Below, one piece after another: positions 1-16,100 of a stretch of 20,361 nucleotides of DNA; position 1 is the stretch's first letter; the number at the start of each line of letters is the position of its first letter. Below the pieces are notes generated by a model, which saw only the letters and a list, made by a program, of their open reading frames with translations, was not told the origin of the DNA and made no database searches. The position numbers and the translations under genes were made by a program. The stretch comes from a virus (taxonomy: Duplodnaviria > Heunggongvirae > Uroviricota > Caudoviricetes). The DNA is taken from positions 1-20,361 of the IMG/VR virus record IMGVR_UViG_2734482780_000011; one strand, written 5' to 3'.

Positions 1-1053
1 TTACGGGGTAATGCCAACTGCTGCCGCCACTTTGTCGCCACTTGGCAGCGTTGCCAGAGGATTGAAACGGAGCGCCGTTTCCAGATGATCCGGTGCCAGA
101 TGAGCGTAACGCATAGTCATTTTTATATCGTGATGTCCGAGGATTTTTTGCAAAGCAAGGATATTTCCACCCGACATCATGAAATGCGCCGCAAACGTAT
201 GGCGCAGAACGTGTGTCAGTTGACCGCGAGGGAGAACGATAGACGTTTTTTCCATTACGGATAAAAATTGAAAATAGCAGTCTGTGAAGAAATTGAACCC
301 ATCAAGTGCCATGATCTCTTCGTAAAGCTCTTTACTGATAGGGATGCTTCTGTTTTTCTTCCCCTTCGTTCTTACAAAGGTAATTCGGTATTTGGTCACC
401 TGTGAACGAGTAAGATTTACGGCTTCTCGCCAGCGTGCGCCTGTGCTTAAGCATATCTTAACTACCAGTGCCAGAATTGGGTCCTGACGTTTGCAATCAG
501 CCAGCAATTCAACAATCTGCTCATGGGTAAGCCATGCCATCTCTTTTTCTGCGATGGTGAATTTTCGCATGTTCTCCAGTGGGTTCGGATACGACCATTC
601 GCCCAGGCGGGATAGTTCGCTAAAAACACTACTTAGATAGCTTTGCTCCAGATTAATGGTGACCGGGCTTGCTCCTTTCTTCCATTTCTCGCTGAAGTAG
701 ATCTCGCCTGTCAGGCGTTTATCTCGATAGTGGGCAAACATTTTAGAGGTGAGATCGGTTGCAAGGGGATTGCCCAGAGCGTCAACCATCAACAGCAATT
801 TGTCATAGACATGCTGCCCAGCAGTCAGAGATTTACCATGTAGTTTGAACCATAGCTCAACCACGTCTTTCAGTGTTCGACGATCCACTGATTCACCCAG
901 CCAGGGTTTTGCTTCGGTTTCTTCCATCGTGTGACGCTCAAAAGCCAGAGCTTCGCCTTTGGTGGCGAATTGTTTACGCACACGACGTCCACTACGTCCG
1001 GCGGGATAACATTCGCAAAGCCATTTTCCTGTGGTGAGTTTTCGTACTGCCAT
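1..1053 (-). CDS. int: Tyrosine recombinase (integrase), 186/P2-type prophage
   Basis: ORF 1..1068 (-). N-terminus MAVRKLTTGKW...RKQFATKGEALAFE resembles 186/P2-type integrases; C-terminal region has the tyrosine-recombinase pattern (HVLRHTFA ... MTMRYAHL). Start placed at the internal Met (1053) because a hairpin plus T-tract overlaps the upstream ATG at 1068; recalled similarity, not searched. Confidence 0.9.
   Translation of the reverse strand: MAVRKLTTGKWLCECYPAGRSGRRVRKQFATKGEALAFERHTMEETEAKPWLGESVDRRTLKDVVELWFKLHGKSLTAGQHVYDKLLLMVDALGNPLATDLTSKMFAHYRDKRLTGEIYFSEKWKKGASPVTINLEQSYLSSVFSELSRLGEWSYPNPLENMRKFTIAEKEMAWLTHEQIVELLADCKRQDPILALVVKICLSTGARWREAVNLTRSQVTKYRITFVRTKGKKNRSIPISKELYEEIMALDGFNFFTDCYFQFLSVMEKTSIVLPRGQLTHVLRHTFAAHFMMSGGNILALQKILGHHDIKMTMRYAHLAPDHLETALRFNPLATLPSGDKVAAAVGITP
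21..41. repeat. Candidate attL core, direct repeat of 17509..17529 (20 of 21 nt identical)
   Basis: ctgccgccactttgtcgccac here versus ctgccgccaatttgtcgccat at 17509..17529, same orientation, at the two extremes of the prophage gene set; lies inside the last codons of int. Confidence 0.5.
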
Positions 1054-1060
1054 AAAAAAT

Positions 1061-1078
1061 GCCCTCATATCAGAGGGC
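1061..1078 (-). terminator. Hairpin (gccctc / gagggc, 6-nt loop) followed on the minus strand by ATTTTTT; terminator or 5' stem-loop between the 488-aa gene and int
   Basis: Perfect 6-bp inverted repeat at 1061..1066 / 1073..1078 with a T-run at 1054..1060 on the minus strand. Confidence 0.35.
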
Positions 1079-1081
1079 TAA

Positions 1082-1110
1082 ATTTAACTGTGTGTTTGAC
1101 CAGTGGTCAA
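1082..1110 (-). promoter_or_regulatory. Candidate int-proximal promoter (minus strand: -35 TTGACC, 17-nt spacer, -10 TTAAAT) overlapping a 15-bp palindrome TTGACCAGTGGTCAA (1096..1110)
   Basis: Read directly from the sequence; the palindrome is perfect around a central G. Confidence 0.3.
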
Positions 1111-1142
1111 TGTATGTAAGTAATAAACCATACATTAGACAT

Positions 1143-2609
1143 TTAGTCAGGAATTGAGTCTTGAAGGTGACGGACTGGAAAATTAAAACTGTAACTATCG
1201 TTATAAAAATCTGATAGATTGTAGATTCTTAATATTATGCGATTACATAATAATCTCAATATTTTAACTTCACGAATGAGAGGGATTATTTCACTATCAT
1301 CAGATTTGTTTCCATGAGCTGAATTGTTACGCTGTTTGAAACTGTTTTTTTCTAATGCTCCTAAGGTTAAGTTTAATGTTTCGTAAAATCTATTTGTTAG
1401 AATTGACTGTGGCGTTTGATTTAGACCAGATAATTTATTCGAGAGTAGATTCTTATCTTCCTCATCCAAAGAAATTTCTTCAGTTATAATTTTCGATAGT
1501 GATTGATGTAATTGTTTCCATAGATTTTTATTTACAAGTTTTGTATTGATCTTTGTGGGGTTTTTCTCTATAAATTTTCGTTGGATAAACTCTAATGTAG
1601 CACCGAAACCAACACCCTTTAGATGTAGGGGGGATGCAGCCGCATGCCAATAGAGCCAAGAGAAATGAGAGAAATCATATTTGTCATAATGGTCAACAAT
1701 TTTTTGAACCATTTGGCTAATTTCACTTTCATCAAGGAATAAATATTCTGAACCAACTGGATGTAATGGTGCAGGGGGTAGGCTATTAGCCGTATAATAT
1801 AAGTCATTGATAGCGTATTGCGTGTAAATTTCAGATTCAATAGAGTTGTAATTTTCATCCTTCAAAGTGCTTGATATATGAATTAATTTACACCCTAATA
1901 TAAAAGATAATGCATCTCTTATTTTCTTTCTCAGTTCGTTGTCACACTCCTTGCTATAAAGAATGAATCCAGGATTATATTTTTTGTCAATTGTTAAACA
2001 ATCATTATGTCCAAAGAAAATATCCATTTCATTAACGCGAATACTACAACATTTTAAACTATTAGATGTAGTATAGTTCTTATCGAAGAAGGAGATAGTA
2101 CTTCTGGCAGATACAAAGTTTCTTTTAATTGTATTTTCATATGATTCTTTAATGCTTGAAGTCCAGCAGTATTGCCCTATGTCTAAATTTGTAATCCAGT
2201 CAATTATGAATTTGTTTTTTTCTGCATGTTTAATTGAGTTGTTACATTGTTTTACAGTTGATATTGAGCATTTTATAGTGGCAAAGGTTTCATGATGGTC
2301 AGTTTTTATGTTTGTGCTTGACAGACTTATGCCATAAAATTCTAATGTAATGTTCTTGTTGTTAATATCTTCTAAAATAAGATATCCATCAATTTTATAT
2401 ATATCACCTTCTTTTCTCTCTGGCTCATTAAAAAAAATAATATTCAAAGCCTCCTTTTTGGGAGGCTTGTAAGTAATCTCTAAAATTAATCTAAGTTTAT
2501 CATCTCGAGATATTCTGAAAGAGTGGAAATTGTTTAATATTCGATTGCTATCTTTAAATTTCCAATGATCACATTGAATTTTTTCTAAGTCTTCCCAGCC
2601 AATATTCAT
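1143..2609 (-). CDS. Hypothetical 488-aa protein, AT-rich cargo gene; candidate defence/abortive-infection protein with a possible C-terminal HEPN-like motif
   Basis: Long uninterrupted ORF, visibly much more AT-rich than its neighbours. Start ATG at 2609 lies 15 nt after the cI stop, preceded by GGAAGG. Residues about 427..432 read RNNSAH (Rx4H pattern). No Walker motif or other recognisable domain seen by eye. Confidence 0.75.
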   Translation of the reverse strand: MNIGWEDLEKIQCDHWKFKDSNRILNNFHSFRISRDDKLRLILEITYKPPKKEALNIIFFNEPERKEGDIYKIDGYLILEDINNKNITLEFYGISLSSTNIKTDHHETFATIKCSISTVKQCNNSIKHAEKNKFIIDWITNLDIGQYCWTSSIKESYENTIKRNFVSARSTISFFDKNYTTSNSLKCCSIRVNEMDIFFGHNDCLTIDKKYNPGFILYSKECDNELRKKIRDALSFILGCKLIHISSTLKDENYNSIESEIYTQYAINDLYYTANSLPPAPLHPVGSEYLFLDESEISQMVQKIVDHYDKYDFSHFSWLYWHAAASPLHLKGVGFGATLEFIQRKFIEKNPTKINTKLVNKNLWKQLHQSLSKIITEEISLDEEDKNLLSNKLSGLNQTPQSILTNRFYETLNLTLGALEKNSFKQRNNSAHGNKSDDSEIIPLIREVKILRLLCNRIILRIYNLSDFYNDSYSFNFPVRHLQDSIPD

Positions 2610-2624
2610 TTAAATAACCTTCCA

Positions 2625-3197
2625 TTATATTTGAGATTCGATAGTTGATACAACGCGACCTTTTAACGAAATATCACTAACGTTACTTATAAAGCTTGTT
2701 AGGTTGTTTTCAATTTTTAGCTGACCAGCAGGCATGCGATACACTTTCCGAAACGATAAATTTCCATCAATTGATATTAACCAAGTCCCATCGGAATAGT
2801 TAGCATTTGAACAATCAACGAAATGAATTGTTTTTATATCTCTAATCACATGTAGATTATCGAAGCCTACGGGCAATAATTTATCGTCGAAGGTAACAAG
2901 TCCATCTTCGACAAGTACGCCATTTTTTAAAATATAGGACTGTAATTCTTTTACGCTATTAGATGACGTAGAGCCAAGAGTTTTAGAACCATTCCCTGTT
3001 ACTAGCCATTTGAGTGAGACGCCTGTCTCTAGCGCACACTGAATTATGTAGTCAGCAGGAAATGTATCTCGCAGGTAGCGGTTTGCCAAAGTACTACTGC
3101 TGATCCCCAATCGTTCACACAGCGCTTGTTTCGTCGTAACCCCATATGCTTCTAGCATACGCTCAATAGCTGCTTTTCCGCCTTTTCGCAAATCCAT
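2625..3197 (-). CDS. cI: Prophage immunity repressor CI (186-type, HTH N-terminus)
   Basis: ORF 2625..3299 (-). From the internal Met the sequence reads MDLRKGGKAAIERMLEAYGVTTKQALCERLGISSSTLANRYLRD...CALETG...WLVTG, an HTH repressor pattern like 186 CI. Start at 3197 gives 190 aa and leaves the operator/promoter region untranslated. Confidence 0.8.
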   Translation of the reverse strand: MDLRKGGKAAIERMLEAYGVTTKQALCERLGISSSTLANRYLRDTFPADYIIQCALETGVSLKWLVTGNGSKTLGSTSSNSVKELQSYILKNGVLVEDGLVTFDDKLLPVGFDNLHVIRDIKTIHFVDCSNANYSDGTWLISIDGNLSFRKVYRMPAGQLKIENNLTSFISNVSDISLKGRVVSTIESQI

Positions 3198-3205
3198 AAA
3201 ATTCC

Positions 3206-3276
3206 CGAAACGTGAGTAAATACCTTGACACTCACGTTTCGTGAGTTTAAATTCATCTCGAAACGTGAGTAATTCA
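3206..3276. promoter_or_regulatory. Lysis/lysogeny switch: candidate lytic promoter (-35 TTGACA 3225..3230, -10 TAAATT 3248..3253) with palindromic operator CTCACGTTTCGTGAG in the spacer, flanked by direct GAAACGTGAGTA half-site repeats
   Basis: Perfect inverted repeat ctcacg/cgtgag at 3231..3245 placed between the -35 and -10; GAAACGTGAGTA copies at 3206..3217 and 3262..3273. Position between divergent cI and apl matches 186/P2 switch architecture. Confidence 0.6.
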
Positions 3277-3320
3277 CTTCTTATCCCGGCTCGCCACAAG
3301 CCAATAGGAGATGTTGCATC

Positions 3321-3542
3321 ATGACCCCTAATATTTCAATAACTCTGAATACACCACACGTCACAATTGAGCGTTATAGCGAACTTACTGGTCTTTCTAT
3401 CGACACAATCAACGATATGCTGGCTGATGGTCGCATCCCTCGCCATCGTCTTCGAAAAGACAAGAAAAGAGAAAAGGTAATGATCAACCTTGCTGCTCTC
3501 ACTGTTGATGCACTTACTGATTGCAATGTTGTATTTAACTAG
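3321..3542 (+). CDS. apl: Apl/Cox-like excisionase and transcriptional regulator
   Basis: 73-aa ORF directly right of the switch, AGGAG 9 nt before the ATG, small basic protein ([15 protein letters not shown]); position and size match 186 Apl / P2 Cox. Confidence 0.65.
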
Positions 3543-3574
3543 TTCCATTTTGGGATACATCAGGGGTGTCGACT

Positions 3575-4084
3575 ATGTTTGATTACCAAGTTTCCAAACA
3601 TCCACATTTTGATGAAGCCTGTCGTGCATTCGCACTGCGCCACAACCTGGTGCAACTGGCAGAACGTGCAGGCATGAATGTGCAGATTCTGCGGAACAAG
3701 CTGAACCCAGCTCAACCTCATTTATTAACCGCACCAGAAATCTGGCTGCTTACCGATCTGACTGAAGATTCAACGCTGGTAGATGGTTTTCTGGCACAGA
3801 TTCATTGTCTGCCATGTGTACCGATTAATGAGGTAGCAAAAGAGAAACTGCCACATTACGTCATGAGTGCAACCGCAGAGATCGGGCGTGTTGCTGCAGG
3901 TGCGGTATCTGGCGATGTAAAAACCAGTACAGGTCGTCGTGATGCTATCAGCAGCATTAACTCTGTAACACGACTGATGGCGTTGGCTGCTGTTTCATTG
4001 CAGGCCCGTTTACAGGCTAACCCTGCGATGGCGAGTGCAGTTGATACCGTGACTGGCCTCGGTGCTTCATTCGGTTTGCTGTGA
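3575..4084 (+). CDS. cII: CII-like lysogeny establishment regulator (186-type)
   Basis: ORF 3566..4084; start at ATG 3575 with AGGGG upstream gives 169 aa, the size of 186 CII; position right after apl. Confidence 0.75.
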
Positions 4085-4091
4085 GGTGCTT

Positions 4092-4325
4092 ATGCTGACG
4101 AAAGAACCATCATTTGCGTCGCTGCTGGTAAAACAAAGTCCGGCAATGCACTACGGTCACGGCTGGATTTATTTACCTTGTGGGAAAAAGTGGCATCCAA
4201 GTTTTGAATTACAACCCCGGCAACAGGCTTACCGGGGAAGAAATAAAAAGCGATTCCTACAAAGATTTATGGTTAACGTGGCAAACAACCTGCGAACCAA
4301 GCGAAAAGTTTTTCTTGGAAGCTGA
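4092..4325 (+). CDS. Hypothetical small protein; its 5' part is repeated at 4828..4887
   Basis: ORF MLTKEPSFASLLVKQSPAMHYGHGW... starting at ATG 4092; 3' end overlaps the antisense 124-aa ORF, so it may be a disrupted gene copy. Confidence 0.3.
   Translation: MLTKEPSFASLLVKQSPAMHYGHGWIYLPCGKKWHPSFELQPRQQAYRGRNKKRFLQRFMVNVANNLRTKRKVFLGS
4109..4168. repeat. 60-bp direct repeat, copy 1 (partner 4828..4887, about 4 mismatches)
   Basis: atcatttgcgtcgctgctggtaaaacaaagtccggcaatgcactacggtcacggctggat versus the near-identical copy 2; weaker similarity continues a further 30 bp. Confidence 0.85.
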
Positions 4326-4647
4326 GGTTTACATCGTCAACCCGACCACAGGCAATAGCAGCTCTTTTGTAGGCAGGGTTTAACAAAGATCCGAATGTTG
4401 TGGAGTCAGAGTGATGCAAAGCTTTCAATTTTTGTGCAATGAACTGTGGAGACAATTCATCCTCGGCGTAAAGCAACTCACCATATTGTCGGCTTTGTAC
4501 GCTTGCTCGTTCCGCAATAATAGCTGGTTGCCATACAAGTTGGATTGCTGTCATTAATTTATCAGCTCGACCATGGAACGTTGCTGTCATTAGTTCAAGG
4601 TAATAACAGTAGTGTAATTGGAAGTATTCGGAGCTTTGTTTAGTCAT
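4273..4647 (-). CDS. Hypothetical 124-aa protein, antisense to the early operon
   Basis: ORF on the minus strand inside an otherwise rightward-transcribed early region, bracketed by the 60-bp direct repeats; no recognisable motif. Confidence 0.5.
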   Translation of the reverse strand: MTKQSSEYFQLHYCYYLELMTATFHGRADKLMTAIQLVWQPAIIAERASVQSRQYGELLYAEDELSPQFIAQKLKALHHSDSTTFGSLLNPAYKRAAIACGRVDDVNLSFQEKLFAWFAGCLPR

Positions 4648-4656
4648 GCCGGATTC

Positions 4657-4737
4657 CTATTTCTTCTCTTGCCCCGGTTCAGGCTGAGGTGCTGGAGCCG
4701 GGCGAGGGAGTACATGAAAGTTGTCTGTTTCTGACAT
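4657..4737 (-). CDS. Possible 26-aa proline-rich peptide (MSETDNFHVLPRPAPAPQPEPGQEKK) upstream of the 124-aa ORF
   Basis: Minus-strand ATG at 4737 preceded by AAGGAG at 7-nt spacing; stop TAG 10 nt before the 124-aa ORF start. Too short for the ORF track. Confidence 0.3.
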   Translation of the reverse strand: MSETDNFHVLPRPAPAPQPEPGQEKK

Positions 4738-4827
4738 CAGTTTTCTCCTTTGAGGGGTAGATGATTGTTAGCACAAATAGTCTACCACTGAGGCACGCGC
4801 CGGGCGTGTAGAAAAATTCCCGGCACA

Positions 4828-4887
4828 ATCATTTGCATCGCTGCTGGTAAAACAAAGCCCGGCAATGCACTACGGTCACGGCTGGAT
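4828..4887. repeat. 60-bp direct repeat, copy 2 (partner 4109..4168)
   Basis: See copy 1; this copy continues into a 41-codon ORF (4865..4990) ending at the start of the next early gene. Confidence 0.85.
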
Positions 4888-4977
4888 CATGGGTGAGGAT
4901 GGTAAACGCTGGCATCCATGTTATTCACAAGATGAATTGCTGTCTGAAGTGACCACGAGGAAACGGAGAAAGTCCAA

Positions 4978-5202
4978 ATGTATGCGGTAGAAAGTGAAGT
5001 GGTTTATCAGTTTCGTTACAGAGGGGATAGTTATTCAGTACCTGAAGATGATTTGCTCTGTTGTTATCCGTCGTTGTCGGGCGATGGCAGTTACTTTTTC
5101 ACACTAAAGGATGGGACGTTTTTACGGGGAGAGCAGGTTAAAGAGACGGTACGAAAAAATGTATCTCCCCTTGAGCGTTACCGTAAGAACAAAGAACGAT
5201 AG
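4978..5202 (+). CDS. Hypothetical early-region protein (74 aa)
   Basis: ORF with GGAGA ahead of the ATG; same strand as the early operon. Confidence 0.5.
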   Translation: MYAVESEVVYQFRYRGDSYSVPEDDLLCCYPSLSGDGSYFFTLKDGTFLRGEQVKETVRKNVSPLERYRKNKER

Positions 5203-5224
5203 TTGCGTTTTGGGGATATGAATT

Positions 5225-5566
5225 ATGGCAATTAATGGCGCTGCGGCGACTGTTCCATTAAGCCCCGGTGAACGCCTGAATGGACTTAATCACATTGCGG
5301 AATTAAGAGCGAAAGTTTTTGGCCTGAATATTGAGTCAGAGCTTGAGCGGTTTATTAAAGATATGCGTGATCCACGGGATATCAATAATGAACAAAATAA
5401 ACGGGCACTGGCTGCCATATTCTTTATGGCAAAAATTCCAGCTGAACGTCATAGCATCAGCATTAATGAGCTGACCACTGACGAAAAGCGGGAGCTGATT
5501 AAAGCAATGAATCATTTTCGTGCAGTGGTGAGCTTATTTCCCAGACGGCTAACCATGCCGAATTAA
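5225..5566 (+). CDS. Hypothetical early-region protein (113 aa)
   Basis: ORF in the early operon; no recognised motif. Confidence 0.5.
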   Translation: MAINGAAATVPLSPGERLNGLNHIAELRAKVFGLNIESELERFIKDMRDPRDINNEQNKRALAAIFFMAKIPAERHSISINELTTDEKRELIKAMNHFRAVVSLFPRRLTMPN

Positions 5567-5633
5567 CCAACTAATGAAATTCATGGCGTAAACCCGCCAG
5601 GCATCCCTTTATCTAAATTCAGGAGAATTGATT

Positions 5634-5867
5634 ATGCGTAATATTGAAACCCTCACGACTAAAACCGGACCGGATGATGCAGGGCTTAATATTTTACTGA
5701 CAGAGGCTCGTCTGGAAGAACGCCGGGCAAGGGCTGAAGCAATGGCAGCTCGCCTTGATAGCCTGGCGTGTCATATCACATCCCGCCAGCTAAACCACGT
5801 CGAAGCGGCAGAACTGCTGCGTGTGACTGCTGAAGCAATCCAGAACGAAGCGCAGGAGATCCACTGA
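5634..5867 (+). CDS. Hypothetical early-region protein (77 aa)
   Basis: AGGAG 8 nt before ATG 5634; stop overlaps the start of the next gene (ATGA-type coupling at 5865..5869). Confidence 0.55.
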   Translation: MRNIETLTTKTGPDDAGLNILLTEARLEERRARAEAMAARLDSLACHITSRQLNHVEAAELLRVTAEAIQNEAQEIH

Positions 5868-6094
5868 TGGCTGATGCAATGGATCTCGTACAGCAGCGCG
5901 TTGAAGAAGAACGCCAGCGTCATATCCGTGCTGCCCGCGCCAAAACGCCGGGCGTATCCCGCGTGCTTTGCATTGAGTGCGAAGCACCAATTCCGCCAGC
6001 ACGACGTCGCGCCATTCCGGGTGTGCAGCTTTGCATTACCTGTCAGGAAATCGCAGAGCTGAAAGGCAAACATTACAACGGAGGTGCTGTATGA
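5867..6094 (+). CDS. TraR/DksA-family C4 zinc-finger protein
   Basis: CIECEAPIPPARRRAIPGVQLCITCQE contains the CxxC-(17)-CxxC zinc-finger pattern typical of phage TraR-like proteins; translationally coupled to its neighbours. Confidence 0.7.
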   Translation: MADAMDLVQQRVEEERQRHIRAARAKTPGVSRVLCIECEAPIPPARRRAIPGVQLCITCQEIAELKGKHYNGGAV

Positions 6095-6948
6095 GCACCA
6101 TCCTGAAATGGGCGGGTAATAAAACCGCCATTATGCCGGAACTGAAAAAATACCTTCCTGCTGGCCCGCGACTGGTTGAACCTTTCGCGGGTTCTTGTGC
6201 TGTGATGATAGAGACGGATTACCCCAGCTATCTTGTTGCGGATATTAATCCTGATTTAATCAACCTCTATAAAAAGGTTGCTGCTGATTGCGAGGCGTTT
6301 ATATCTCGTGCCAGAGCTTTATTTGAGGAAGCAAACAGGGAGGTGGCTTATTACAACATAAGGCAGGAGTTTAATTACTCCACTGAAATTACTGATTTCA
6401 TGAAAGCGGTATATTTCCTGTATCTCAATCGTCATGGTTACCGTGGGTTATGTCGCTATAACAAGAGCGGGCATTTCAACATTCCCTACGGGAATTATAA
6501 AAATCCGTATTTCCCTGAAAAAGAAATTCGCAAATTTGCAGAAAAAGCCCAGCGAGCAACGTTTATCTGCGCCAGCTTTGATGAAACGCTGGCGATGTTG
6601 AAGGCGGGGGATGTGGTGTATTGCGATCCGCCTTATGACGGTACGTTTTCCGGCTATCACACTGATGGCTTCACTGAGGATGACCAGTATCACCTGGCAT
6701 CCGTTCTTGAACATCGATCATCTGAAGGTCATCCGGTCATTGTTTCTAACAGTGACACATCCCTGATTCGTTCGCTGTATCGCAATTTCACTCACCACTA
6801 CATCAAGGCAAAACGCAGCATCGGCGTGTCGGCTGGCGAGAGTAAATCTGCAACAGAAATCATTGCTGTTTCCGGGGCGCGCTGCTGGGTGGGATTTGAT
6901 CCTTCGCGTGGCGTGGATAGTTCTGCTGTGTACGAGGTGCGTGTATGA
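6091..6948 (+). CDS. dam: DNA adenine methyltransferase (Dam-like N6-adenine MTase), no adjacent restriction gene
   Basis: N-terminus [26 protein letters not shown]-binding FAGSCAV, catalytic DPPY ([10 protein letters not shown]); GGAGGTG precedes the ATG at 6091; ORF-track start at 5977 is an upstream extension. Confidence 0.9.
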
Positions 6949-7757
6949 GTCATGACGATATGAGCAACTCTAGCGGCTTTAACGAGGCCGCTGCAGCATT
7001 TTCATGGAACGGCCCGAAAAAGGCCATTAACCCTTATCTGGACCCGGCGGAAGTTGCGCCGGAGTCTGCACTTTCAAACATGATCACTCTGTACGCTGCC
7101 GATAACGAGCAGGAACAGCTGCGCCGCGATGCACTGAGTGAGCAGGTCTGGGAGCGTTATTTCTTTAATGAATCCCGTGATCCTGTCCAGCGCGAAATGG
7201 AGCAGGATAATCTCATTAGTCGGGCAAAGCTGGCGCATGAGCAGCAGCGTTTTAACCCGGACATGGTCATTCTGGCGGACGTCAGCGCCCAGCCCACCCA
7301 CATCAGCAAGCCGCTGATGCAACGTATCGAATACTTCAGCAGCCTGGGCAGGCCAAAGGCTTATTCCCGCTATTTGCGTGAGACGATTAAGCCATGTCTG
7401 GAGCGACTGGAGTATGTACGCGACAGTCAGCTATCCGCTTCTTTCCGTTTTATGGCAAGCCATCAAGGGCTTGAGGGCCTGCTGATCCTGCCTGAAATGA
7501 GTCAGGATCAGGTAAAACGCCTGTCCACCCTGGTACGCCAGGTGAAGCTGAAAAGGCGTAAAGACTACAAACAGCGAATTACAGATCATCAGCATCAGCA
7601 GCTCGTCTATGAACTGAAGTCCAGAGGATTTGATGGCAGCGAGAAAGAGGTCGATTTACTCCTTCGCGGTGGCAGTATTCCGTCAGGAGCAGGCCTGCGT
7701 ATTTTCTATCGGAACCAGCGTTTGCAGGAAGATGATAAGTGGCGGAACCTGTATTAA
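6945..7757 (+). CDS. Hypothetical 270-aa protein
   Basis: ORF start overlaps the dam stop (ATGA at 6945..6948); acidic/glutamine-rich, no recognised domain; does not look like a rolling-circle replication initiator. Confidence 0.55.
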
Positions 7758-7910: not shown

Positions 7911-8099
7911 ATGCAGGACTATTTTTTGGAGTCTTTGAAGCTCCAGCGCATTGATTTTTTTCTTAAGCTTGTAGCGGCTAGTGAGTGTAGTGATGAAGAG
8001 AAAGGGCTGGCTCTGCAGTGGGTTTCTGAACTGACAGATGAACTCATGGCAAAAATCAGAACCCACGAATACAACCGCTCAATGGATGTCATCAGCTGA
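7911..8099 (+). CDS. Small SOS-induced protein, possible Tum-like antirepressor N-terminal module
   Basis: AGGAGG 8 nt before ATG 7911 (ORF-track start at 7809 lies upstream of the promoter); first gene after the LexA box; followed by a DinI-like gene, as in the 186 tum region. Confidence 0.45.
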   Translation: MQDYFLESLKLQRIDFFLKLVAASECSDEEKGLALQWVSELTDELMAKIRTHEYNRSMDVIS

Positions 8100-8109
8100 G
8101 GTGACTTTT

Positions 8110-8343
8110 ATGCGCATTGAAATAATGATCGATAAAGAGCAGAAGATTAGCCAGTCTACCCTGGACGCCCTTGAATCCGAGCTTTACCGCAATCTGCGCC
8201 CCCTGTATCCCAAAACGGTAATTCGCATTCGCAAAGGTAGCTCTAACGGTGTGGAACTAACCGGACTGCAACTGGATGAAGAAAGAAAACAAGTGATGAA
8301 AATTATGCAGAAGGTGTGGGAGGACGACAGCTGGCTGCATTAA
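8110..8343 (+). CDS. DinI-family protein
   Basis: MRIEIMIDKEQKISQSTLDALESELYRNLRPLYP...KVWEDDSWLH aligns by eye with E. coli DinI (MRIEVTIAK...AIDALAGELSRR...ETWESADDW). Confidence 0.8.
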   Translation: MRIEIMIDKEQKISQSTLDALESELYRNLRPLYPKTVIRIRKGSSNGVELTGLQLDEERKQVMKIMQKVWEDDSWLH

Positions 8344-8810: not shown

Positions 8811-9392
8811 ATGAGCGAAAGGAAAAGAATTGAAGATCAGTATCTTCTCTATCATTTAACATGTATGGATAATCTACCTAGTATTTTAGACACAGGATTA
8901 AGATCTCGTGCATCAGTAAAAGGTGAGTTTGTTGATGTGGCCGACGGTGAAATAATAACAGGTCGCGAAGCATTAAATTTGCAAACAATGGTTCCTTTTC
9001 ATTTCTTTACTAAGAATCCATTTGATGGAAGAGTCCTGAAAGATCATAAGGAAAAATCATTTTGTATTATTTCGGTTTGTCGGGCATTTGCCAAAGAAAA
9101 TGGTTGGAAAGTTATCCCTAAACATCCATTATCCACCAGTTCTGTTATAGACCTCTTAGATTATGAACAAGGAATGGCCCAAATTGACTGGGAGCTAATG
9201 AATATAAGGGATTATAAAAATGCAGAATGCAAATCTGTATGTATGGCTGAGTGTTTATCAAGTGTAACGGTCGAGCCGAAAAATTTCCATTGCATCTTTG
9301 TCAAAAATGATAACGAAAAAAAATATGTTGAAGGGTTGATAAAACAACAAGGATTAAGTATATTGATAACGATCAACACTTATATGTTCTAA
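8811..9392 (+). CDS. darT: DarT-like ssDNA ADP-ribosyltransferase toxin (DUF4433 family)
   Basis: LYHLTCMDNLPSIL, VPFHFF, DWELM and a late acidic segment match my recollection of DarT signatures (IYHITHIDNLKGIL, VPFYF, DWEAM); AT-rich; immediately followed by a macrodomain gene. Confidence 0.7.
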   Translation: MSERKRIEDQYLLYHLTCMDNLPSILDTGLRSRASVKGEFVDVADGEIITGREALNLQTMVPFHFFTKNPFDGRVLKDHKEKSFCIISVCRAFAKENGWKVIPKHPLSTSSVIDLLDYEQGMAQIDWELMNIRDYKNAECKSVCMAECLSSVTVEPKNFHCIFVKNDNEKKYVEGLIKQQGLSILITINTYMF

Positions 9393-9396
9393 TTCT

Positions 9397-10368
9397 ATGA
9401 TTAAGTATGCAAGCGGAAATCTTCTAAACTCTACATCGCAAGCTCTTGTGAATGCTGTAAACTGCCAAGGAGTCATGGGAAAGGGTATTGCTTTGGCTTT
9501 TAAAGAAACTTTTCCCTATAATTTCGAAGTTTATAAGAGAGCATGCGCCACTGGTACAATGAAAATTGGACAGGTTTTAATTGTAGAGGAAAAGGGAAAA
9601 ATAATTGTAAACTTTCCCACTAAAGATAGTTGGAGAAAAAAATCAACATATGATTTTATCTCGCAAGGCCTTGAATCTTTAGCAAAAATTATAGATGAAA
9701 AAAAAATTACATCAATATCAATACCACCTTTAGGCTGTGGTAATGGGGGCCTCGATTGGAATAAGGTTGAGGCTCTTATTTTAAAAACTTTTCAAAATTT
9801 AGATAATGTTGATGTGGTAATTTATCCGCCTGCAACTAACAATCAACTTTCAAAAAATAAAAATGTTATTAATGCTAAGCATCTTTTGGTTCACTACGCC
9901 TATGGAAAATTAAAAGTTAAGCAAAAATATTCCCTTTATACAGTTTTTTATATTTGCGAATGTATTGAGAAAGCAAATCTTTTTTTATTCGATTTTAAAC
10001 ATGGTCGGCCATACTCTTCTGAGTTAGAAAATATTATGAAGGATATAGCAAACCTTAAAGTTGAGTTGCAAGGAGATTTTGATGCTTTTATTGAAGATTA
10101 TATTAATACTCATCAATCCAAAGAGTTACAAACCGAGTTTGGTAAACTAATCTCAACTTTAAATCCAAGTATAAGTTTGCTCAATGCTCTTAAAAATAAG
10201 ATTGATTATATAGATAGCGTACATGTGATCACGAGAATTGCTAAAGAAAAAGATCATGGCTTGCATATTGACAATTTCAAAGAATATGAAAATATTGTGC
10301 AGCATTTAATTAAAAATGGATTGGTAATCGAAGATATTTTTAACGAACTAAAAATAAAGGGAAGTTAG
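9397..10368 (+). CDS. darG: DarG-like macrodomain antitoxin
   Basis: N-terminus GNLLNSTSQALVNAVNCQGVMGKGIALAF is the macrodomain nucleotide-binding signature (N-x-x-N / G-x-G loop); 4 nt downstream of darT; AT-rich. Confidence 0.75.
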   Translation: MIKYASGNLLNSTSQALVNAVNCQGVMGKGIALAFKETFPYNFEVYKRACATGTMKIGQVLIVEEKGKIIVNFPTKDSWRKKSTYDFISQGLESLAKIIDEKKITSISIPPLGCGNGGLDWNKVEALILKTFQNLDNVDVVIYPPATNNQLSKNKNVINAKHLLVHYAYGKLKVKQKYSLYTVFYICECIEKANLFLFDFKHGRPYSSELENIMKDIANLKVELQGDFDAFIEDYINTHQSKELQTEFGKLISTLNPSISLLNALKNKIDYIDSVHVITRIAKEKDHGLHIDNFKEYENIVQHLIKNGLVIEDIFNELKIKGS

Positions 10369-11091: not shown

Positions 11092-12006
11092 ATGCCATAC
11101 CAATTGGTAGAGCTTAGCCCCGTAGCTAACGATCTTGAACAGTTAGGAACCAAAGAGAAGTTTTGGTTCTATTTCTCCGATGACACTGTAAATTTGCAGT
11201 TGTTTAAGTACTCTAGGCCAGATACTGGCGAGCATTGGTCTGAAAAGTGTGCTGCTGAGTTATGTCATTTGCTTAACATTCCACATGCTAGCTATGATTT
11301 GGCGCGATACAATGGTCGATTCGGTGTGGTGACTCAGAATATCATTCCATCTGGTTTCCGGATGGTAATGGGAAATGAAGTGCTTCACAGTTCGACATTC
11401 GATTATCCTGGGCCTTTACAAGCCGGGGAAAAGCCGGTAAGGGTCAGAGAACACACTGTCACAAGGGTATTGGGTTGTTTAGATAGGGAATCTATCAAGC
11501 CTCCTCCGAGTGTATATGATCTAACCGGGCTAAATGCAGCAGATGTATTTTGTGGATATTTGATGCTCGATGCACTTGTGAGTAATCAAGATCGCCATCA
11601 TGAAAATTGGGCGATCATGCTTAACAATGAAACTGGTGAGCAGTTTTTGTGTCCAACATACGATCATGCCGCTAGTTTAGGAAGGGAGATGTTAGATGAT
11701 GAGCGTAACGAACGGCTTAATACTAAAGATAAAAATCGACAAATCCCATGTTTTGTAAGAAAAGCTCGCTCTGAGCTATTCAAAGCAAAAACTGATAAAA
11801 AGCCCTTGCTGACCGTTGAAGCATTTCAACATGCAGTTGAAGGGAGAGTTGCCGCTCGCGACCATTGGTTAGGTAAGTTGAGCGTTTTAACAGAAGATTC
11901 CATTACAGATGTGTTTAACCAAGTGCCTTCATCGTGTATATCCGACAGTGCACGTAGATTTGCAACGTTAATGGTAATGGAAAATCGCAGAAGGTTACTA
12001 GAATGA
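11092..12006 (+). CDS. HipA-like serine/threonine kinase, short form lacking the N-terminal domain (304 aa)
   Basis: GTKEKFWF (compare HipA GAQEK), catalytic-loop-like LVSNQDRHHENWAIM (compare HipA D-x-H-x-K-N) and LCPTYDHAASLG (compare HipA P-x-YD) in the HipA order and spacing. Confidence 0.65.
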   Translation: MPYQLVELSPVANDLEQLGTKEKFWFYFSDDTVNLQLFKYSRPDTGEHWSEKCAAELCHLLNIPHASYDLARYNGRFGVVTQNIIPSGFRMVMGNEVLHSSTFDYPGPLQAGEKPVRVREHTVTRVLGCLDRESIKPPPSVYDLTGLNAADVFCGYLMLDALVSNQDRHHENWAIMLNNETGEQFLCPTYDHAASLGREMLDDERNERLNTKDKNRQIPCFVRKARSELFKAKTDKKPLLTVEAFQHAVEGRVAARDHWLGKLSVLTEDSITDVFNQVPSSCISDSARRFATLMVMENRRRLLE

Positions 12007-12743
12007 CTAATACAAACTCCGTTTACGTCGCATGGCAGGCACCAGATACCAGAGACTGGCATGTTGTTGGTAACTTGCAAGAGCGCAAATCGGGGTATGT
12101 TTTCAGGTATACCAAAGGTGCTCTTAAATCTACTAAATTTACAAAGTTTAGCGGCATGAGTGATGTTCGTGAAACTTATGTTTCGGAAGAATTGTTTCCT
12201 CTTTTTAAAAATCGCCTTTTATCACCGAGACGTCCAGAGTATCCGAGTTTCATTAAATGGCTTGGATTTGAAGAAGATAAGGTAAATCCTATCGATATTC
12301 TTGCTCGCTCGGGAGGCCTACGAAGCACTGATCAGCTGCAGATTTTCAAAAAAATTGATGTTGATTCTGATGGTAACTTTGAGCATTTTTTCTTCTTACA
12401 TGGACTTGGTTACTTAAATAGCTTAGCTAATGCTCGTGTATCTGAATTGAAACCGGGGCAAATTTTGCGTCTTTGCTTGGATCTTCAAAATGAATACGAT
12501 GGGGATGCTGTTGTCGTTCGTGCAGATAAACCAGCTGAAATCGTTGGTTATTGCCCTAGGTATTTAAGTAATGATATCAAGAAGATGTTATTGGATGATC
12601 CAAAATCAATCACTTTAACGGTCGAAAAGATTAGCGATGATGCTCCTCATAACTATCGGTTATTATGTAAATTATCAGGAGTACTAAGCCAAGCCTGTCA
12701 ATCGACGCTGATTCCTCAGGATGAGTTTGAACCTATTGAGTAA
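12003..12743 (+). CDS. Two-domain partner: HipA-N/HipS-like N-terminal domain fused to a C-terminal HIRAN-like domain (246 aa)
   Basis: Start overlaps the kinase stop (ATGA). N-terminus VYVAWQ...VGNLQ...YVFRY...LFPLFKNRLLSPRR resembles the HipA N-terminal domain. C-terminus KPGQILRLCLDLQNEYDGDAVVVRADKPAEIVGYCPRYLSNDIKKMLLDD fits the HIRAN pattern. Confidence 0.55.
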   Translation: MTNTNSVYVAWQAPDTRDWHVVGNLQERKSGYVFRYTKGALKSTKFTKFSGMSDVRETYVSEELFPLFKNRLLSPRRPEYPSFIKWLGFEEDKVNPIDILARSGGLRSTDQLQIFKKIDVDSDGNFEHFFFLHGLGYLNSLANARVSELKPGQILRLCLDLQNEYDGDAVVVRADKPAEIVGYCPRYLSNDIKKMLLDDPKSITLTVEKISDDAPHNYRLLCKLSGVLSQACQSTLIPQDEFEPIE

Positions 12744-12777: not shown

Positions 12778-13818
12778 TTATGGGACTATATCTAGCGAGT
12801 AGGTATTAAACTGTATCGCCTCCTTGCCAAGCCAATCATTCATCTCCTGTAATCGCTTTTGTAGTGGCATTAGCTCATTTCGGACGAATACACGGCTTGC
12901 CTTCTCCACATCCCCAAACCCCCCAACATTATTCGGCATAATCCCCATCATTTGCGGCGGCACACGATGCGCCGCCATCATGTCGTCCCGGCTTACGTTC
13001 TTGATGTTCAGAAACTCATCCTTTGCCGCCACTTCTGACAGCGGGATGATCTGAAGCCCGTCCTTTTTGCCGTTAGGCGAGTACATAAACAGGTTGCGGA
13101 AGTTGCCCGGACCTTTGGCGCTTTTCATCGCGTTGCGGAGGTTGTTCACATCCTCCTGGTTCTGAGCGGCATCGGTCATGTACATTATGAATCCTGCATG
13201 GCTGCCATTAATATAATATTTGCGTCGGAACAGCGTGGCGGACTCGTTGAGCAGGGCTGACGGAATGGCAGAAAGATAGCCGGGCAGGCCGTAGATCTCC
13301 TGGTTGATATCGGGTTCCATCAGATGAAAGATGCTGCCTTTCGTGAACTGATACGGCTGGGTTGTCATACCGTATTGCACAAACCAGTAGGTATCCAGGT
13401 CTAACCCGCGTCGGGTGTATTTTGCCAGAGCAGGCTCAAGGGCGATAACTTCACCGAAGCGGTTCGTGCGTTTCTCCAGGTAGGCGTTACCAAATACCAG
13501 ATAGTCCTGCACAAAACGTGAAAAAGCCTGCTGGCTAAGCAGCGGGTGAGGGATGTAGGTGCTGGTTAGAATGTTGCATTTCACTGCAATGGGTGAGCTG
13601 TGATGCACGGCGGCGCGGAAGGTTCGCGCCAGTCCGTCAAAGCTGACGGGCGGCTCATACCAACGGTCCATCTGTACGCATTCCACATAGTCCAGTAATT
13701 CTCGGCGGTCCAGTACTGGAATGGGATCGCCGAAGCTGAATGCTTCGGCTGAAGTCTGGCTTTTATGCTGGGTCTGGTTCTGCGACGCAGCGCGGTTCTT
13801 CTTACTCTTTCCCATCAA
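12778..13818 (-). CDS. Q: Portal protein (P2 gpQ-like)
   Basis: 346 aa, close to the size of P2 gpQ; start overlaps the stop of the upstream terminase fragment as in the P2 PQ operon; 3' end points toward the cos-like site. Confidence 0.8.
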   Translation of the reverse strand: MMGKSKKNRAASQNQTQHKSQTSAEAFSFGDPIPVLDRRELLDYVECVQMDRWYEPPVSFDGLARTFRAAVHHSSPIAVKCNILTSTYIPHPLLSQQAFSRFVQDYLVFGNAYLEKRTNRFGEVIALEPALAKYTRRGLDLDTYWFVQYGMTTQPYQFTKGSIFHLMEPDINQEIYGLPGYLSAIPSALLNESATLFRRKYYINGSHAGFIMYMTDAAQNQEDVNNLRNAMKSAKGPGNFRNLFMYSPNGKKDGLQIIPLSEVAAKDEFLNIKNVSRDDMMAAHRVPPQMMGIMPNNVGGFGDVEKASRVFVRNELMPLQKRLQEMNDWLGKEAIQFNTYSLDIVP

Positions 13819-14231
13819 AAAATCTCCACAATATTGCTGGTATTGGCGGACTCGCCCTGCAGCGGTTCGTTAAACAGTGCGTGCATTGTTGCCCAGGCCA
13901 GATCGGCGTGGCTGGCTTCTTCGCTGCGGCTGGCTTCATAGGTCGGGCGGTTGCCACTGGCGGTGGTGGCGCGACGGATTGCCATAAATGACTGCGCTAT
14001 GTCGGTGTGTCCGGCGTCAAACTCCAGACGGCGGTGGCTGATAATGTCGTAGGCCTTGAGTACCAGAGCGTTTTTAACGTTGGGGTTGTAGACAAACTCC
14101 CGGACGGCAGGAAAGAACGCTTTCACGTTCTCATAAACCCCGTGACCGACGCCTGTCGAGTCAATGCCGATATAGGTCACGTTGTACTGCTCGGTCAGTT
14201 TTTTGATTCCGCCCTTAATCATCTCAACCAT
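13815..14231 (-). pseudogene. P: Terminase large subunit (gpP-like), C-terminal 138-aa remnant
   Basis: Only the C-terminal part of what should be an approximately 590-aa protein; coupled to Q; no upstream start or ATPase region present. Confidence 0.65.
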
Positions 14232-14298
14232 GCGTTACAGCTCGATCCCCGCTGTGGCGTGAAAAAAGACAAACAGCAGCTGGAGCGCAGACTGCGCA

Positions 14299-15618
14299 AT
14301 GACAGCCGCTGACAGAACGTGCCCCCGCGCACGGGCGGCACGGGGTGGCGAAAGGCACAGCCACATCAAAACCCCGTCCACCGCCCTTTATTTCAGGAGA
14401 AAGCAGCATGAAGTTTGTTGCGCCAGAACAGGCAACGCCGCAGGTTTACTTACTGCGCCGTTGTCGTCTTTGCGCCGCACGGCATCACTGACGGGAAATG
14501 TCCTGAAAACTGTAGCAGGTGCGCCGGTTGCACTTTTGCGGTCTGGATTATCCGGTTTACGTGCTGTTGCTGTTATGTTTATGAATCCTCTGGCGGTACT
14601 GCGCGGTGGACTGGCCGCCGCAGGCACGGTGCTGCGAGTACTGGCATCTGGTCCACTGGCGATGCTGCGCGTTGCCCTGTATGCCATATCTGGTCTGTTA
14701 GGTGCTCTGCTCAGTCCGATAGGTCTTGTGGTTACTGCACTGGCGGGCGTGGCGCTGGTTGTCTGGAAATACTGGCAACCCATCACCGCATTTCTCGGTG
14801 GCGTGGTGGAAGGATTCAAAGCGGCGGCAGGTCCCATCAGTGCAGCGTTCGAACCGCTTAAGCCCGTGTTCCAGTGGATTGGCGACAAAGTGCAGGCGCT
14901 GTGGGGCTGGTTTACTGATCTGCTGACGCCCGTTAAGTCGACCTCTGCCGAACTGCAGAGCGCAGCGGCAATGGGGCGGCGATTCGGGGAGGCACTGGCG
15001 GAAGGGCTGAATATGGTCATGCATCCGCTGGACTCCCTGAAATCCGGCGTTTCCTGGTTGCTGGAGAAGCTCGGCATTGTCAGTAAAGAGGCCGCAAAGG
15101 CAAAACTGCCGGAAAGCGTGACGCGTCAGCAACCTGCGACGGTGAATGCAGACGGTAAAGTGATGATGCCATCGGGTGGTTTTCCATCATGGGGATATGA
15201 CTTTGCGGGGATGTATGACAGCGGCGGGTATATCCCGCGCGGGCAGTTTGGCATCGTCGGTGAAAACGGGCCGGAAATTGTTAACGGCCCGGCAAATGTG
15301 ACCAGCCGGAGAAATACAGCTGCACTGGCTGCCGTTGTTGCCGGAATGATGGGCGTTGCTGCCGCGCCAGCAGAGCTTCCACCGTTGCACCCTTTGGCAC
15401 TTCCCGCGAAAGGTGGAGAAGCAATTGTGAGTCGCGCAGCCACTGTGCCGCTCGTTCAACGGATTGAGGCACCGACGCAGATCATCATTCAGACGCAGCC
15501 AGGACAAAGTGCGCAGGATATTGCGCGGGAGGTGGCACGCCAGCTTGATGAACGTGAACGCAGGCTGAAGGCAAAAGCCAGGAGTAACTACAGCGATCAG
15601 GGGGGATACGACGCATGA
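14299..15618 (+). pseudogene. T: Tail tape measure protein (gpT-like), C-terminal portion only
   Basis: Gly/Ala-rich helical repeats and GGYIPRGQFGIVGENGPEIV near the C-terminus; 439-codon frame versus about 800 aa expected; followed directly by U and D. Confidence 0.65.
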
Positions 15619-16100
15619 TGATGGTGCTGGGATTGTACGTGTTTATGCTGCGCACCGTTCCGTATCAGGAACTGCAGTATCAACGCAGCTGGCGACATGC
15701 GGCAAACAGTCGGGTAAACCGACGTCCGTCCACGCAGTTTCTGGGACCGGAAAACGACATGCTGACGCTTTCCGGTGTTCTTATGCCGGAAATAACAGGC
15801 GGCAGGCTGTCGTTGCTGGCACTGGAGCAGATGGCAGAACAGGGGAAAGCATGGCCCCTGATTGAAGGCAGCGGCACGATTTACGGCATGTATGTGATTG
15901 AGGGACTGAATCAGACTAAAACGGAGTTTTTCCGCGATGGTATGCCGCGCCGGATTGAGTTCACCCTGTCGCTCAAACGGGTGGATGAATCCCTGTCCGA
16001 TATGTTCGGTGATCTCAGTGCGCAGCTGAATAATTTGCAGGATACGACAACGTCTGCCTTAAGCGATATCAGTAAAACGGTGGGAGGGCTGCTGTCGTGA
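15615..16100 (+). CDS. U: Tail protein gpU-like
   Basis: 161 aa, same size and position as P2 gpU between T and D; start overlaps the T stop. Confidence 0.8.
   Translation: MMMVLGLYVFMLRTVPYQELQYQRSWRHAANSRVNRRPSTQFLGPENDMLTLSGVLMPEITGGRLSLLALEQMAEQGKAWPLIEGSGTIYGMYVIEGLNQTKTEFFRDGMPRRIEFTLSLKRVDESLSDMFGDLSAQLNNLQDTTTSALSDISKTVGGLLS

Follow-up and report, generated by a model that had tools for sequence, protein, structure and literature searches.

An antisense gene pair between two copies of the fil start in a 186-like prophage of Escherichia coli

We analysed the early region of a prophage carried on a 20,361-nucleotide (nt) stretch of DNA (IMG/VR virus record IMGVR_UViG_2734482780_000011, positions 1 to 20,361), referred to here as the window. 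It holds a prophage of Escherichia coli that is 186/Fels-2-like (Peduoviridae), and window positions 1-4547 are 100% identical to the prophage beside rcdA in strain GF130. Immediately after cII, the beginning of fil, a gene of the 186 Fil cell-division-inhibitor family, is present twice, and between the two copies lies a cassette of two small genes on the strand opposite to the early operon. The fil copies and the repeat that they share are as follows.

4092..4325, plus strand: fil', an alternative allele, complete at 77 amino acids (aa), of the 186 Fil cell-division-inhibitor family (PF10893, phrog_816)
4106..4168, plus strand: direct repeat copy 1, within fil' (repeat search, shuffles)
4825..4887, plus strand: direct repeat copy 2 (repeat search, shuffles)
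4829..4990, plus strand: 5'-truncated remnant of the fil allele of type-A phages (defined below), beginning at codon 7, with 94% identity to residues 7-59 of Fil from phage 813R9

A repeat search of the window returned a direct repeat of 63 nt (4106-4168 and 4825-4887) with 3 mismatches (95% identity) and a spacing of 719; its 59-nt core, at no more than 3 mismatches, occurs twice in the window and not at all in 100 shuffles. The first-pass annotation had described a two-copy repeat of 60 bp with a shared peptide start and similarity over some ten further codons, and both observations hold with the limits refined as given here. Either copy encodes the peptide SFASLLVKQSPAMHYGHGWI, and the bases G4118, T4140 and T4168 are specific to copy 1. 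Past the 63 nt the nucleotide identity drops to about 60-78% while protein similarity persists, as in the weaker stretch 4181-4203 versus 4900-4922 (78%), a pattern that fits a pair of diverged alleles with a conserved 5' end in common. Both alleles belong to Pfam family PF10893, Phage_186_Fil (gathering cut-off 25 bits), with scores of 83.6 bits for fil' and 81.7 bits for the type-A allele that matches the right-hand remnant. Codons 1-36 of fil' are under strong purifying selection, with a ratio of non-synonymous to synonymous substitution rates (dN/dS) of 0.01-0.09. The 3' part of fil' overlaps the 3' end of the larger, minus-strand cassette gene; over that end and the adjacent terminator-like hairpin the ratio is relaxed (0.4-0.9), and changes in the fil' frame of the overlap are 100% non-synonymous. 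The frame of the remnant is closed upstream by a stop at 4778-4780 and offers no ATG, GTG or TTG until an internal ATG at 4865. The remnant ends at a TAG (4988-4990) that is CAG (L002, 2467-2469) in 813R9 and in Klebsiella phage 4LV2017, so that both phages, like strain NC101, are annotated with an 80-98-aa 'Fil' reading over the next gene, orf74, in another frame; the true gene pair is probably a short Fil of ~59 aa followed by orf74. That Fil blocks cell division on over-expression is known from the annotation of phage 186 alone.

The arrangement of the window is one of several in which cII, fil, the cassette and the genes to their right are found:

Type A: cII-fil-orf74-DUF5347; the commonest, seen in most E. 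coli prophages of this kind, 4LV2017 and 813R9
Type B: cII-fil'-cassette-DUF5347, with no second fil and usually no orf74; Fels-2, Kosakonia, a viral operational taxonomic unit, Citrobacter, Enterobacter, and E. coli 14EC029 and GPEC60-12-649
Type B + orf74: as type B, with an orf74 homologue; Klebsiella sp. R390
Type Y: cII-cassette-fil(Y)-RepB; Yersinia, Hafnia, Pectobacterium
Type C: cII-fil'-cassette-fil remnant-orf74-DUF5347; the window, GF130, NC101 and Escherichia sp. E1V33

Klebsiella phage 4LV2017 and E. coli phage 813R9 represent the empty site. Both align to window positions 3300-4168 and 4825-6100 at 96-98% identity, and in both the two alignments overlap on precisely the 63 nt, leaving one repeat copy, one intact fil and no cassette. 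The region is present in 1239 complete E. coli genomes, 40 of which carry the cassette; about 1200 resemble the empty site of these two phages, and the cassette is thus missing from ~97% of E. coli prophages of this kind. An empty site with a single repeat copy and no 124-aa ORF had been predicted, and the duplicated arrangement is not the universal state of the family. All 40 cassette-bearing genomes cover at least 80% of window positions 4000-5000. Thirty-eight are at least 99% identical with the right-hand fil copy covered; of these, GF130 and NC101 were read and are type C. The other two, 14EC029 and GPEC60-12-649, stand at ~94% identity, and their annotation shows type B. The close family has 61 loci in IMG/VR, which we counted as 45 of type B, 4 of type B + orf74, 7 of type Y and 5 of type C. 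All type-C loci seen were in Escherichia, and their cassettes are at least 99% identical, whereas types B and Y are spread over many genera at 66-89% protein identity. The Pectobacterium locus (L008, 4578-5060) carries two extra small genes of 65 and 87 aa between cassette and cII, on the cassette strand, which suggests that the site is able to gather more cargo.

We next consider how the window came to have its two fil copies. Comparison with types A and B locates one further feature:

4825..4828: recombination seam; similarity to type-B phages stops at 4828 and similarity to type-A fil begins at 4825

On the left, identity to the type-B prophage of E. coli 14EC029 is 95-100% in every 100-nt block from 3600 to 4299, unbroken at 4168 where the first repeat copy ends, and ranges from 86% to 99% deeper in the cassette. 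The similarity of all type-B copies to the window ends at a single point, just past CCCGGCAC(A/T)A (4828), beyond which type-B phages have their own 38-nt spacer into DUF5347, unrelated to the type-C sequence. Rightward of 4825 the window's identity with type A is 95.5-96.7%, and with type B only 89%. These patterns point to a type-C arrangement that would combine the left part of a type-B phage, through the upstream edge of the cassette at 4828, with the right part of a type-A phage from fil codon 7. The joining at 4828/4829 would have been illegitimate, possibly aided by a homologous crossover further right. Because the 5' end is strongly conserved in both fil alleles, such a seam leaves two 63-nt copies, one in the complete fil', which is the sole fil of type-B phages, and one in the start-less remnant. 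We hold this structural and evolutionary account with considerable confidence; the order of the recombination events is the part that we infer, from the distribution of the types and the patterns of identity.

Two other histories have to be set against it. The first-pass annotation had proposed that cargo was acquired by recombination within an early gene, leaving a partial duplication: in its fuller form, a type-A phage would have gained the cassette inside fil by an insertion that duplicated ~60-100 bp of the fil 5' end. Measured against type A, the sole difference is indeed one 719-nt block bounded by the repeat, between flanks that are 96-98% identical. Recombination involving fil stands, but the simple insertion is not supported. 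The left junction is old and occurs without a second fil in Fels-2, Kosakonia, Citrobacter, Enterobacter, two E. coli strains and 45 of the 61 IMG/VR loci, so that many genera have the fil'-cassette junction with no duplication; the window follows E. coli type B past 4168 without a break; and a fresh duplication is not expected to be 95% identical over 63 nt and ~60-78% thereafter. There is no recombinase or transposase gene in the cassette and no transposase or integrase adjoining it. An insertion of a transposon, insertion sequence or integron with target duplication was rejected on the same ground and because the two repeat copies belong to homologous alleles that have diverged. The insertion-duplication history is already disfavoured, and we regard it as highly improbable. 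Alternatively, type C could be the older state, from which type B arose by deletion of the fil remnant and orf74, and type A by recombination between the 63-nt repeats, with precise excision of the cassette and restoration of fil. The repeats, at 95% identity, form a RecA-dependent deletion substrate for exactly the 719 nt that separate C from A, and the intermediate 'type B + orf74' is known in Klebsiella and four IMG/VR loci. The restriction of type C to Escherichia, its near-identical cassettes, the breadth and divergence of types B and Y, and a junction spacer in type B unlike the type-C sequence all speak against this history, which we consider unlikely. Whichever the order of events, the 63-nt repeats could mediate exact loss of the 719 nt and so restore fil.

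The material between the repeats consists of two genes with putative signals at either end, as follows.

4215..4237, minus strand: terminator-like hairpin, CCCCGG-N11-CCGGGG followed by a T-containing tail, 36 nt downstream of the 124-aa open reading frame (ORF) (scan)
4273..4647, minus strand: 124-aa ORF, a SLATT-like family protein of two transmembrane (TM) helices (phrog_6315) with an in-frame 28-aa deletion of the TM hairpin (phrog_6315 match 1e-56, in two stretches)
4537..4547: point at which 84 nt are deleted, within a short direct repeat, AAGTTGGATTG, of which the intact gene has two copies
4657..4737, minus strand: 26-aa proline-rich micro-ORF, MSETDNFHVLPRPAPAPQPEPGQEKK, whose stop lies 10 nt ahead of the start of the larger ORF
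4779..4787, minus strand: candidate extended -10 element, TGGTAGACT (a weak inference)
4799..4824, no strand assigned: inverted repeat GCCGGG-N14-CCCGGC on the cassette's upstream border, conserved (arm counts across loci)

A minus-strand 124-aa ORF and a short ORF upstream of it had been noted before, and we confirmed both; the 124-aa ORF proves to be a deletion derivative of a 152-aa protein. The intact protein is 152 aa long in GF130, in Fels-2 and in all 40 cassette-bearing E. coli complete genomes. Alignment with GF130 and Fels-2 showed that the window allele lacks 84 nt, corresponding to residues 38-65 (ISGTAVFANTGLEWLFAFPVVVIATIQL), which would have been lost by slippage between the 11-nt repeats. 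The exact 124-aa product has been deposited for at least four E. coli assemblies, which shows the allele to be real. The deletion takes out most of both predicted TM helices, and the window's allele is probably inactive. Hydropathy of the 152-aa protein indicates two TM segments at about 31-48 and 49-72. An AlphaFold2 model built with 101 family sequences is all-helical, with a long helical hairpin (6-43 and 50-88) followed by three short helices, and has a predicted local distance difference test score (pLDDT) of 93.2. A profile search of the wider family gave 170 clusters, single-domain and mostly about 150-165 aa long. Both cassette genes are under purifying selection (dN/dS 0.04-0.10; 0.05-0.10 for the micro-ORF). 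Among the PHROGs the cassette products matched only phrog_6315, to which no function is assigned, and the family, with no Pfam, PADLOC or literature assignment, is undescribed but conserved.

The micro-ORF is preceded by an AAGGAG Shine-Dalgarno sequence. A small upstream ORF was present at every family member examined, including those only 30-40% identical in other types of phage, where 7-13 nt separate its stop from the start of the larger gene. Its C-terminus is proline-rich in two lambdoid loci and on L023, a short contig that is unplaced (endings such as ...QVPYRPSERQPEPQPKQ, ...RQKPPVPPKPPKEN and ...REAPPPPAPSPQPSQPQR); the sole exception is the ORF of a Mu-like locus, which has 56 aa and is less rich in proline. 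The inverted repeat is likewise present at nearly all family loci, at -46 to -57 from the micro-ORF start in Rac-like prophages, at -60 to -63 in 186-like prophages and at 76-80 nt upstream in the distant loci L027 and L028. Its arms covary (GCCGGG/CCCGGC, ACCGGG/CCCGGT, GCCGAG/CTCGGC, GCCGGA/TCCGGC and GCCTG/CAGGC); we counted them directly, since RNAalifold missed the repeat owing to a 5' arm that is out of register in the alignment. In the window (4799-4824) and in loci L005, L009, L024, L027 and L028 the loop is T-rich and ends in CACG. By sequence the inverted repeat is not a terminator, and no Rfam family was found in window positions 3300-5600. Control of the cassette by the 186 CII protein was not supported, as the CII operator ATGTTTG-N13-CAAACAT is unrelated to GCCGGG-N14-CCCGGC; pairing of the 5' arm of the hairpin with the start region of the 124-aa ORF, suggested by a single-sequence fold, was dropped because it is not kept in Yersinia and Hafnia. 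At the other end of the cassette, the hairpin at 4215-4237 retains its stem in Fels-2 with a changed loop, and may act as a terminator. The motif TGGTAnAnT of the candidate extended -10 is conserved in the Escherichia, Salmonella, Yersinia, Hafnia and Pectobacterium copies.

Relatives of the larger cassette protein at 30-40% identity occur in three further settings. Rac-like lambdoid prophages carry one at the position of sieB, with the recE/kil side on one flank and the repressor on the other; a second lambdoid prophage has one beside an S24 repressor; and a Mu-like phage has one that separates its lysis genes from its head genes. In all three the cassette gene lies on the strand opposite to both of its neighbours. 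It neighbours division-inhibitor genes in two contexts: beside fil in the window and, in Rac-like prophages, on the kil side. The Rac-like position raised SieB as a possible identity, which we rejected (hhalign probability 0.3% and no PF14163 match, against 1.5e-31 for Rac SieB itself).

The family also gives a weak but repeated signal of similarity to SLATT domains. NCBIfam NF033632 (SLATT_4) was matched by 42 of 101 family members and SLATT_1 by 12 of 101, all below threshold and collinear with the profile; the best individual score was ~21 bits against a cut-off of 55. Pfam returned a few SLATT_4 and SLATT_fungal matches among the family, the best, though weak, fold matches in the BFVD viral structure library were dominated by SLATT proteins, and nr lists one family member under the name 'SLATT family 5'. 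The 152-aa protein has the SLATT-style arrangement of a two-TM hairpin after an N-terminal helix; the 124-aa allele does not. We consider the family SLATT-like, short of formal membership. A search of the cassette against defence and exclusion families, as the first-pass annotation had advised, thus yielded this sub-threshold similarity in the family and nothing in PADLOC, in Pfam or from SieB. Among the neighbours, which are phage regulatory and replication genes, we found none of the nucleotide-signal or DNA-synthesis partners (SMODS/CD-NTase, SLOG, TIR or reverse transcriptase).

Taken together, the explanation that we think probable overall is a type B-type A seam next to an antisense SLATT-like moron that is disabled in this copy. 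The unit is present or absent among collinear relatives, as types A, B and C illustrate, which is what is expected of a moron. From upstream to downstream, the inverted repeat, the 26-aa peptide gene, the 152-aa protein gene and the terminator-like hairpin would form a self-contained unit transcribed against the early lytic operon. A lysogen would express it, and the membrane protein would perturb the membrane and thereby bring about abortive infection, superinfection exclusion or prophage addiction. For the micro-peptide we propose a role as partner of the effector or as a translational leader. On prophage induction, convergent early lytic transcription would silence the cassette. A lysogen-expressed membrane effector is suggested by the antisense orientation to the lytic operon, the optional presence, the membrane-directed and SLATT-like protein, the terminator-like hairpin and the sieB position in Rac-like prophages. 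That the cassette serves as a defence or exclusion effector is, on this evidence, a tentative proposal to which we give somewhat less than an even chance. Several observations count against the proposals made here. Every SLATT match falls under the curated threshold, and the window's own protein has none; the 152-aa, 124-aa and 26-aa products have no match in Pfam or PADLOC (PADLOC-DB 2.0), and no solved structural relative was found. A promoter scan of the cassette found no sigma-70 consensus promoter and did not call the candidate -10, which is not kept in the Rac-like subfamily. For the history of the locus, the order in which B and A would have given C comes from distribution and identity patterns, and C could be ancestral to B or A.

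The gene pair could instead be a toxin-antitoxin-like addiction module, or a factor for the phage's own lytic or lysogenic cycle that acts, for example, through membrane depolarization or lysis timing, and have no part in defence. Its layout, a small upstream gene with a membrane protein, resembles small toxin systems, and its proximity to division-inhibitor genes is constant. Its optional nature and its orientation against the lytic operon in three phage types fit an accessory function in the lysogen better, and we think this alternative rather unlikely, although on present data addiction and defence cannot be told apart. A different objection, which touches this copy alone and not the family, is that nothing in it is functional and that it is debris of a dying prophage. 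The 84-nt deletion, the decay of gene A, the terminase and the late genes, and a right-hand fil copy without a start codon favour such a view, whereas the deletion is in frame and its allele recurs among assemblies, and the micro-ORF and fil' are intact; we put the chances as evenly balanced. Returning to the membrane effector, in its most specific form it would be a new and widespread single-effector system of temperate phages: a divergent stand-alone SLATT-like pore protein controlled by an obligatory and usually proline-rich micro-peptide, either a partner or a ribosome-sensing leader, and by a covarying upstream hairpin. Placed antisense within lytic operons, it would be on in lysogens and off at induction, and would act in exclusion or abortive infection in prophages of the 186-like, Rac-like and Mu-like kinds, in Enterobacterales as well as Pasteurellaceae. 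Such a system is possible, and we advance it with real doubt.

The surroundings of the cassette are those of a 186-like early region, in the order int, a 488-aa low-GC ORF, cI, apl/cox, cII, the repeat-cassette feature, orf74, DUF5347/RepB, DUF2732, a DksA-type zinc finger gene, dam and A. The genes that flank the feature are:

3566..4084, plus strand: cII (186 CP76/CII family), the last gene ahead of fil'; 'phage regulatory CII family protein' in the GF130 annotation
4978..5202, plus strand: orf74, phrog_4312 (function not assigned), part of the type-A module and missing in most type-B phages
5225..5566, plus strand: DUF5347/RepB-like gene, from which all arrangements are collinear again

The cII gene is 98-99% identical to those of 4LV2017 and 813R9. 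Between the start of cI and apl, window positions 3199-3279 (the intergenic region and the cI 5' end) hold a cluster of inverted and direct repeats of the AAACGTGAGT type, presumably the operators of this immunity type. The 488-aa ORF between int and cI (1143-2609, minus strand) has 27-31% GC against ~48% in its flanks, and searches of Pfam, PADLOC and PHROG gave it no meaningful match. At the same int-cI position other prophages of the group carry a KAP NTPase (NC101) or a PARIS-like pair of AAA_15 and DUF4435 genes (Hafnia, Pectobacterium), and the ORF is a candidate for an as yet undescribed defence gene.

Elsewhere the prophage is much reduced. Gene A (6945-7757) has an internal deletion of ~1.6 kb relative to GF130, in which window 7534/7535 corresponds to GF130 (L004) positions 8099 and 9700, and a 270-aa ORF is left. 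The late region (12778-17197) has collapsed to the portal gene followed by the C-terminal 138 aa of the large terminase, with most late genes missing; the ORFs after the terminase fragment, for which no family match was confirmed, we take from their position to be a C-terminal fragment of the tape-measure gene, gpU and gpD. A host membrane-protein gene follows the late region at 17742-19427. The prophage, of ~17 kb, cannot be viable, and the loss of the TM hairpin fits prophage decay. Other cargo is retained. In the GpA-GpQ hotspot, a DarT gene (PF14487) and then a macro-domain DarG-like gene (8811-10368, plus strand) make up a DarTG-type toxin-antitoxin defence pair. A HipA_C-like kinase ORF (a weak match, 21 bits) runs into the beginning of a HIRAN-domain ORF (11092-12743, plus strand), and the two may be a second cargo pair in this hotspot. 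Positions 8038-8343 hold a DinI-like gene.

Taken by itself, the repeat is an instance of ordinary phage mosaicism, a clean case of two alternative early-region modules spliced together. The cargo matters more: purifying selection acts on this gene pair, which recurs in temperate phages of three unrelated architectures, always antisense to a lytic operon. Should the pair indeed encode a membrane effector that works in exclusion or abortive infection, it would be a minimal system of the SLATT type whose control element is unusual, and the cII-fil site would be a further cargo position of P2/186-like prophages.

The locus can be compared with several known systems. In phage 186, members of the Fil family stand at the same place as fil' and the remnant, immediately after cII; 186 differs from the window in having a single fil followed by dhr and no antisense cassette. 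We found no convincing similarity between orf74 and 186 Dhr, and nothing in the literature on Fels-2 STM2734/STM2733.1 or on 186 fil/dhr. The hotspots and morons of P2-like phages (Rousset et al. 2022, PMC9122126; NAR 2026, PMC13586616) are likewise optional, self-contained units between conserved genes of collinear prophages. Unlike them, the cII-fil site has one recurrent cassette in three arrangements in place of a high turnover of cargo, and neither the site nor this gene pair is described in those two papers. SieB of Rac and P22, which acts in superinfection exclusion or abortive infection, is also a small prophage membrane protein, with the same position in Rac and the same opposite orientation. 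SLATT domains are predicted pore-forming suicide effectors in cyclic-oligonucleotide-based antiphage signalling systems (CBASS) and in the defence-associated reverse transcriptase system DRT10 (10.1101/2020.05.25.114553; 10.64898/2026.04.29.721553; PMC11381338). The cassette protein resembles the SLATT_4 effectors of type I CBASS and the SLATT-5 effectors of DRT10/UG17 reverse transcriptase systems in its size, N-terminal helix, two TM helices and helical C-terminal part, and carriage on mobile elements is common to both. It differs from them in that its sole co-conserved partner is a gene for a peptide of 26-56 aa, in its antisense placement inside phage lytic operons and, for the copy in the window, in having no TM hairpin.

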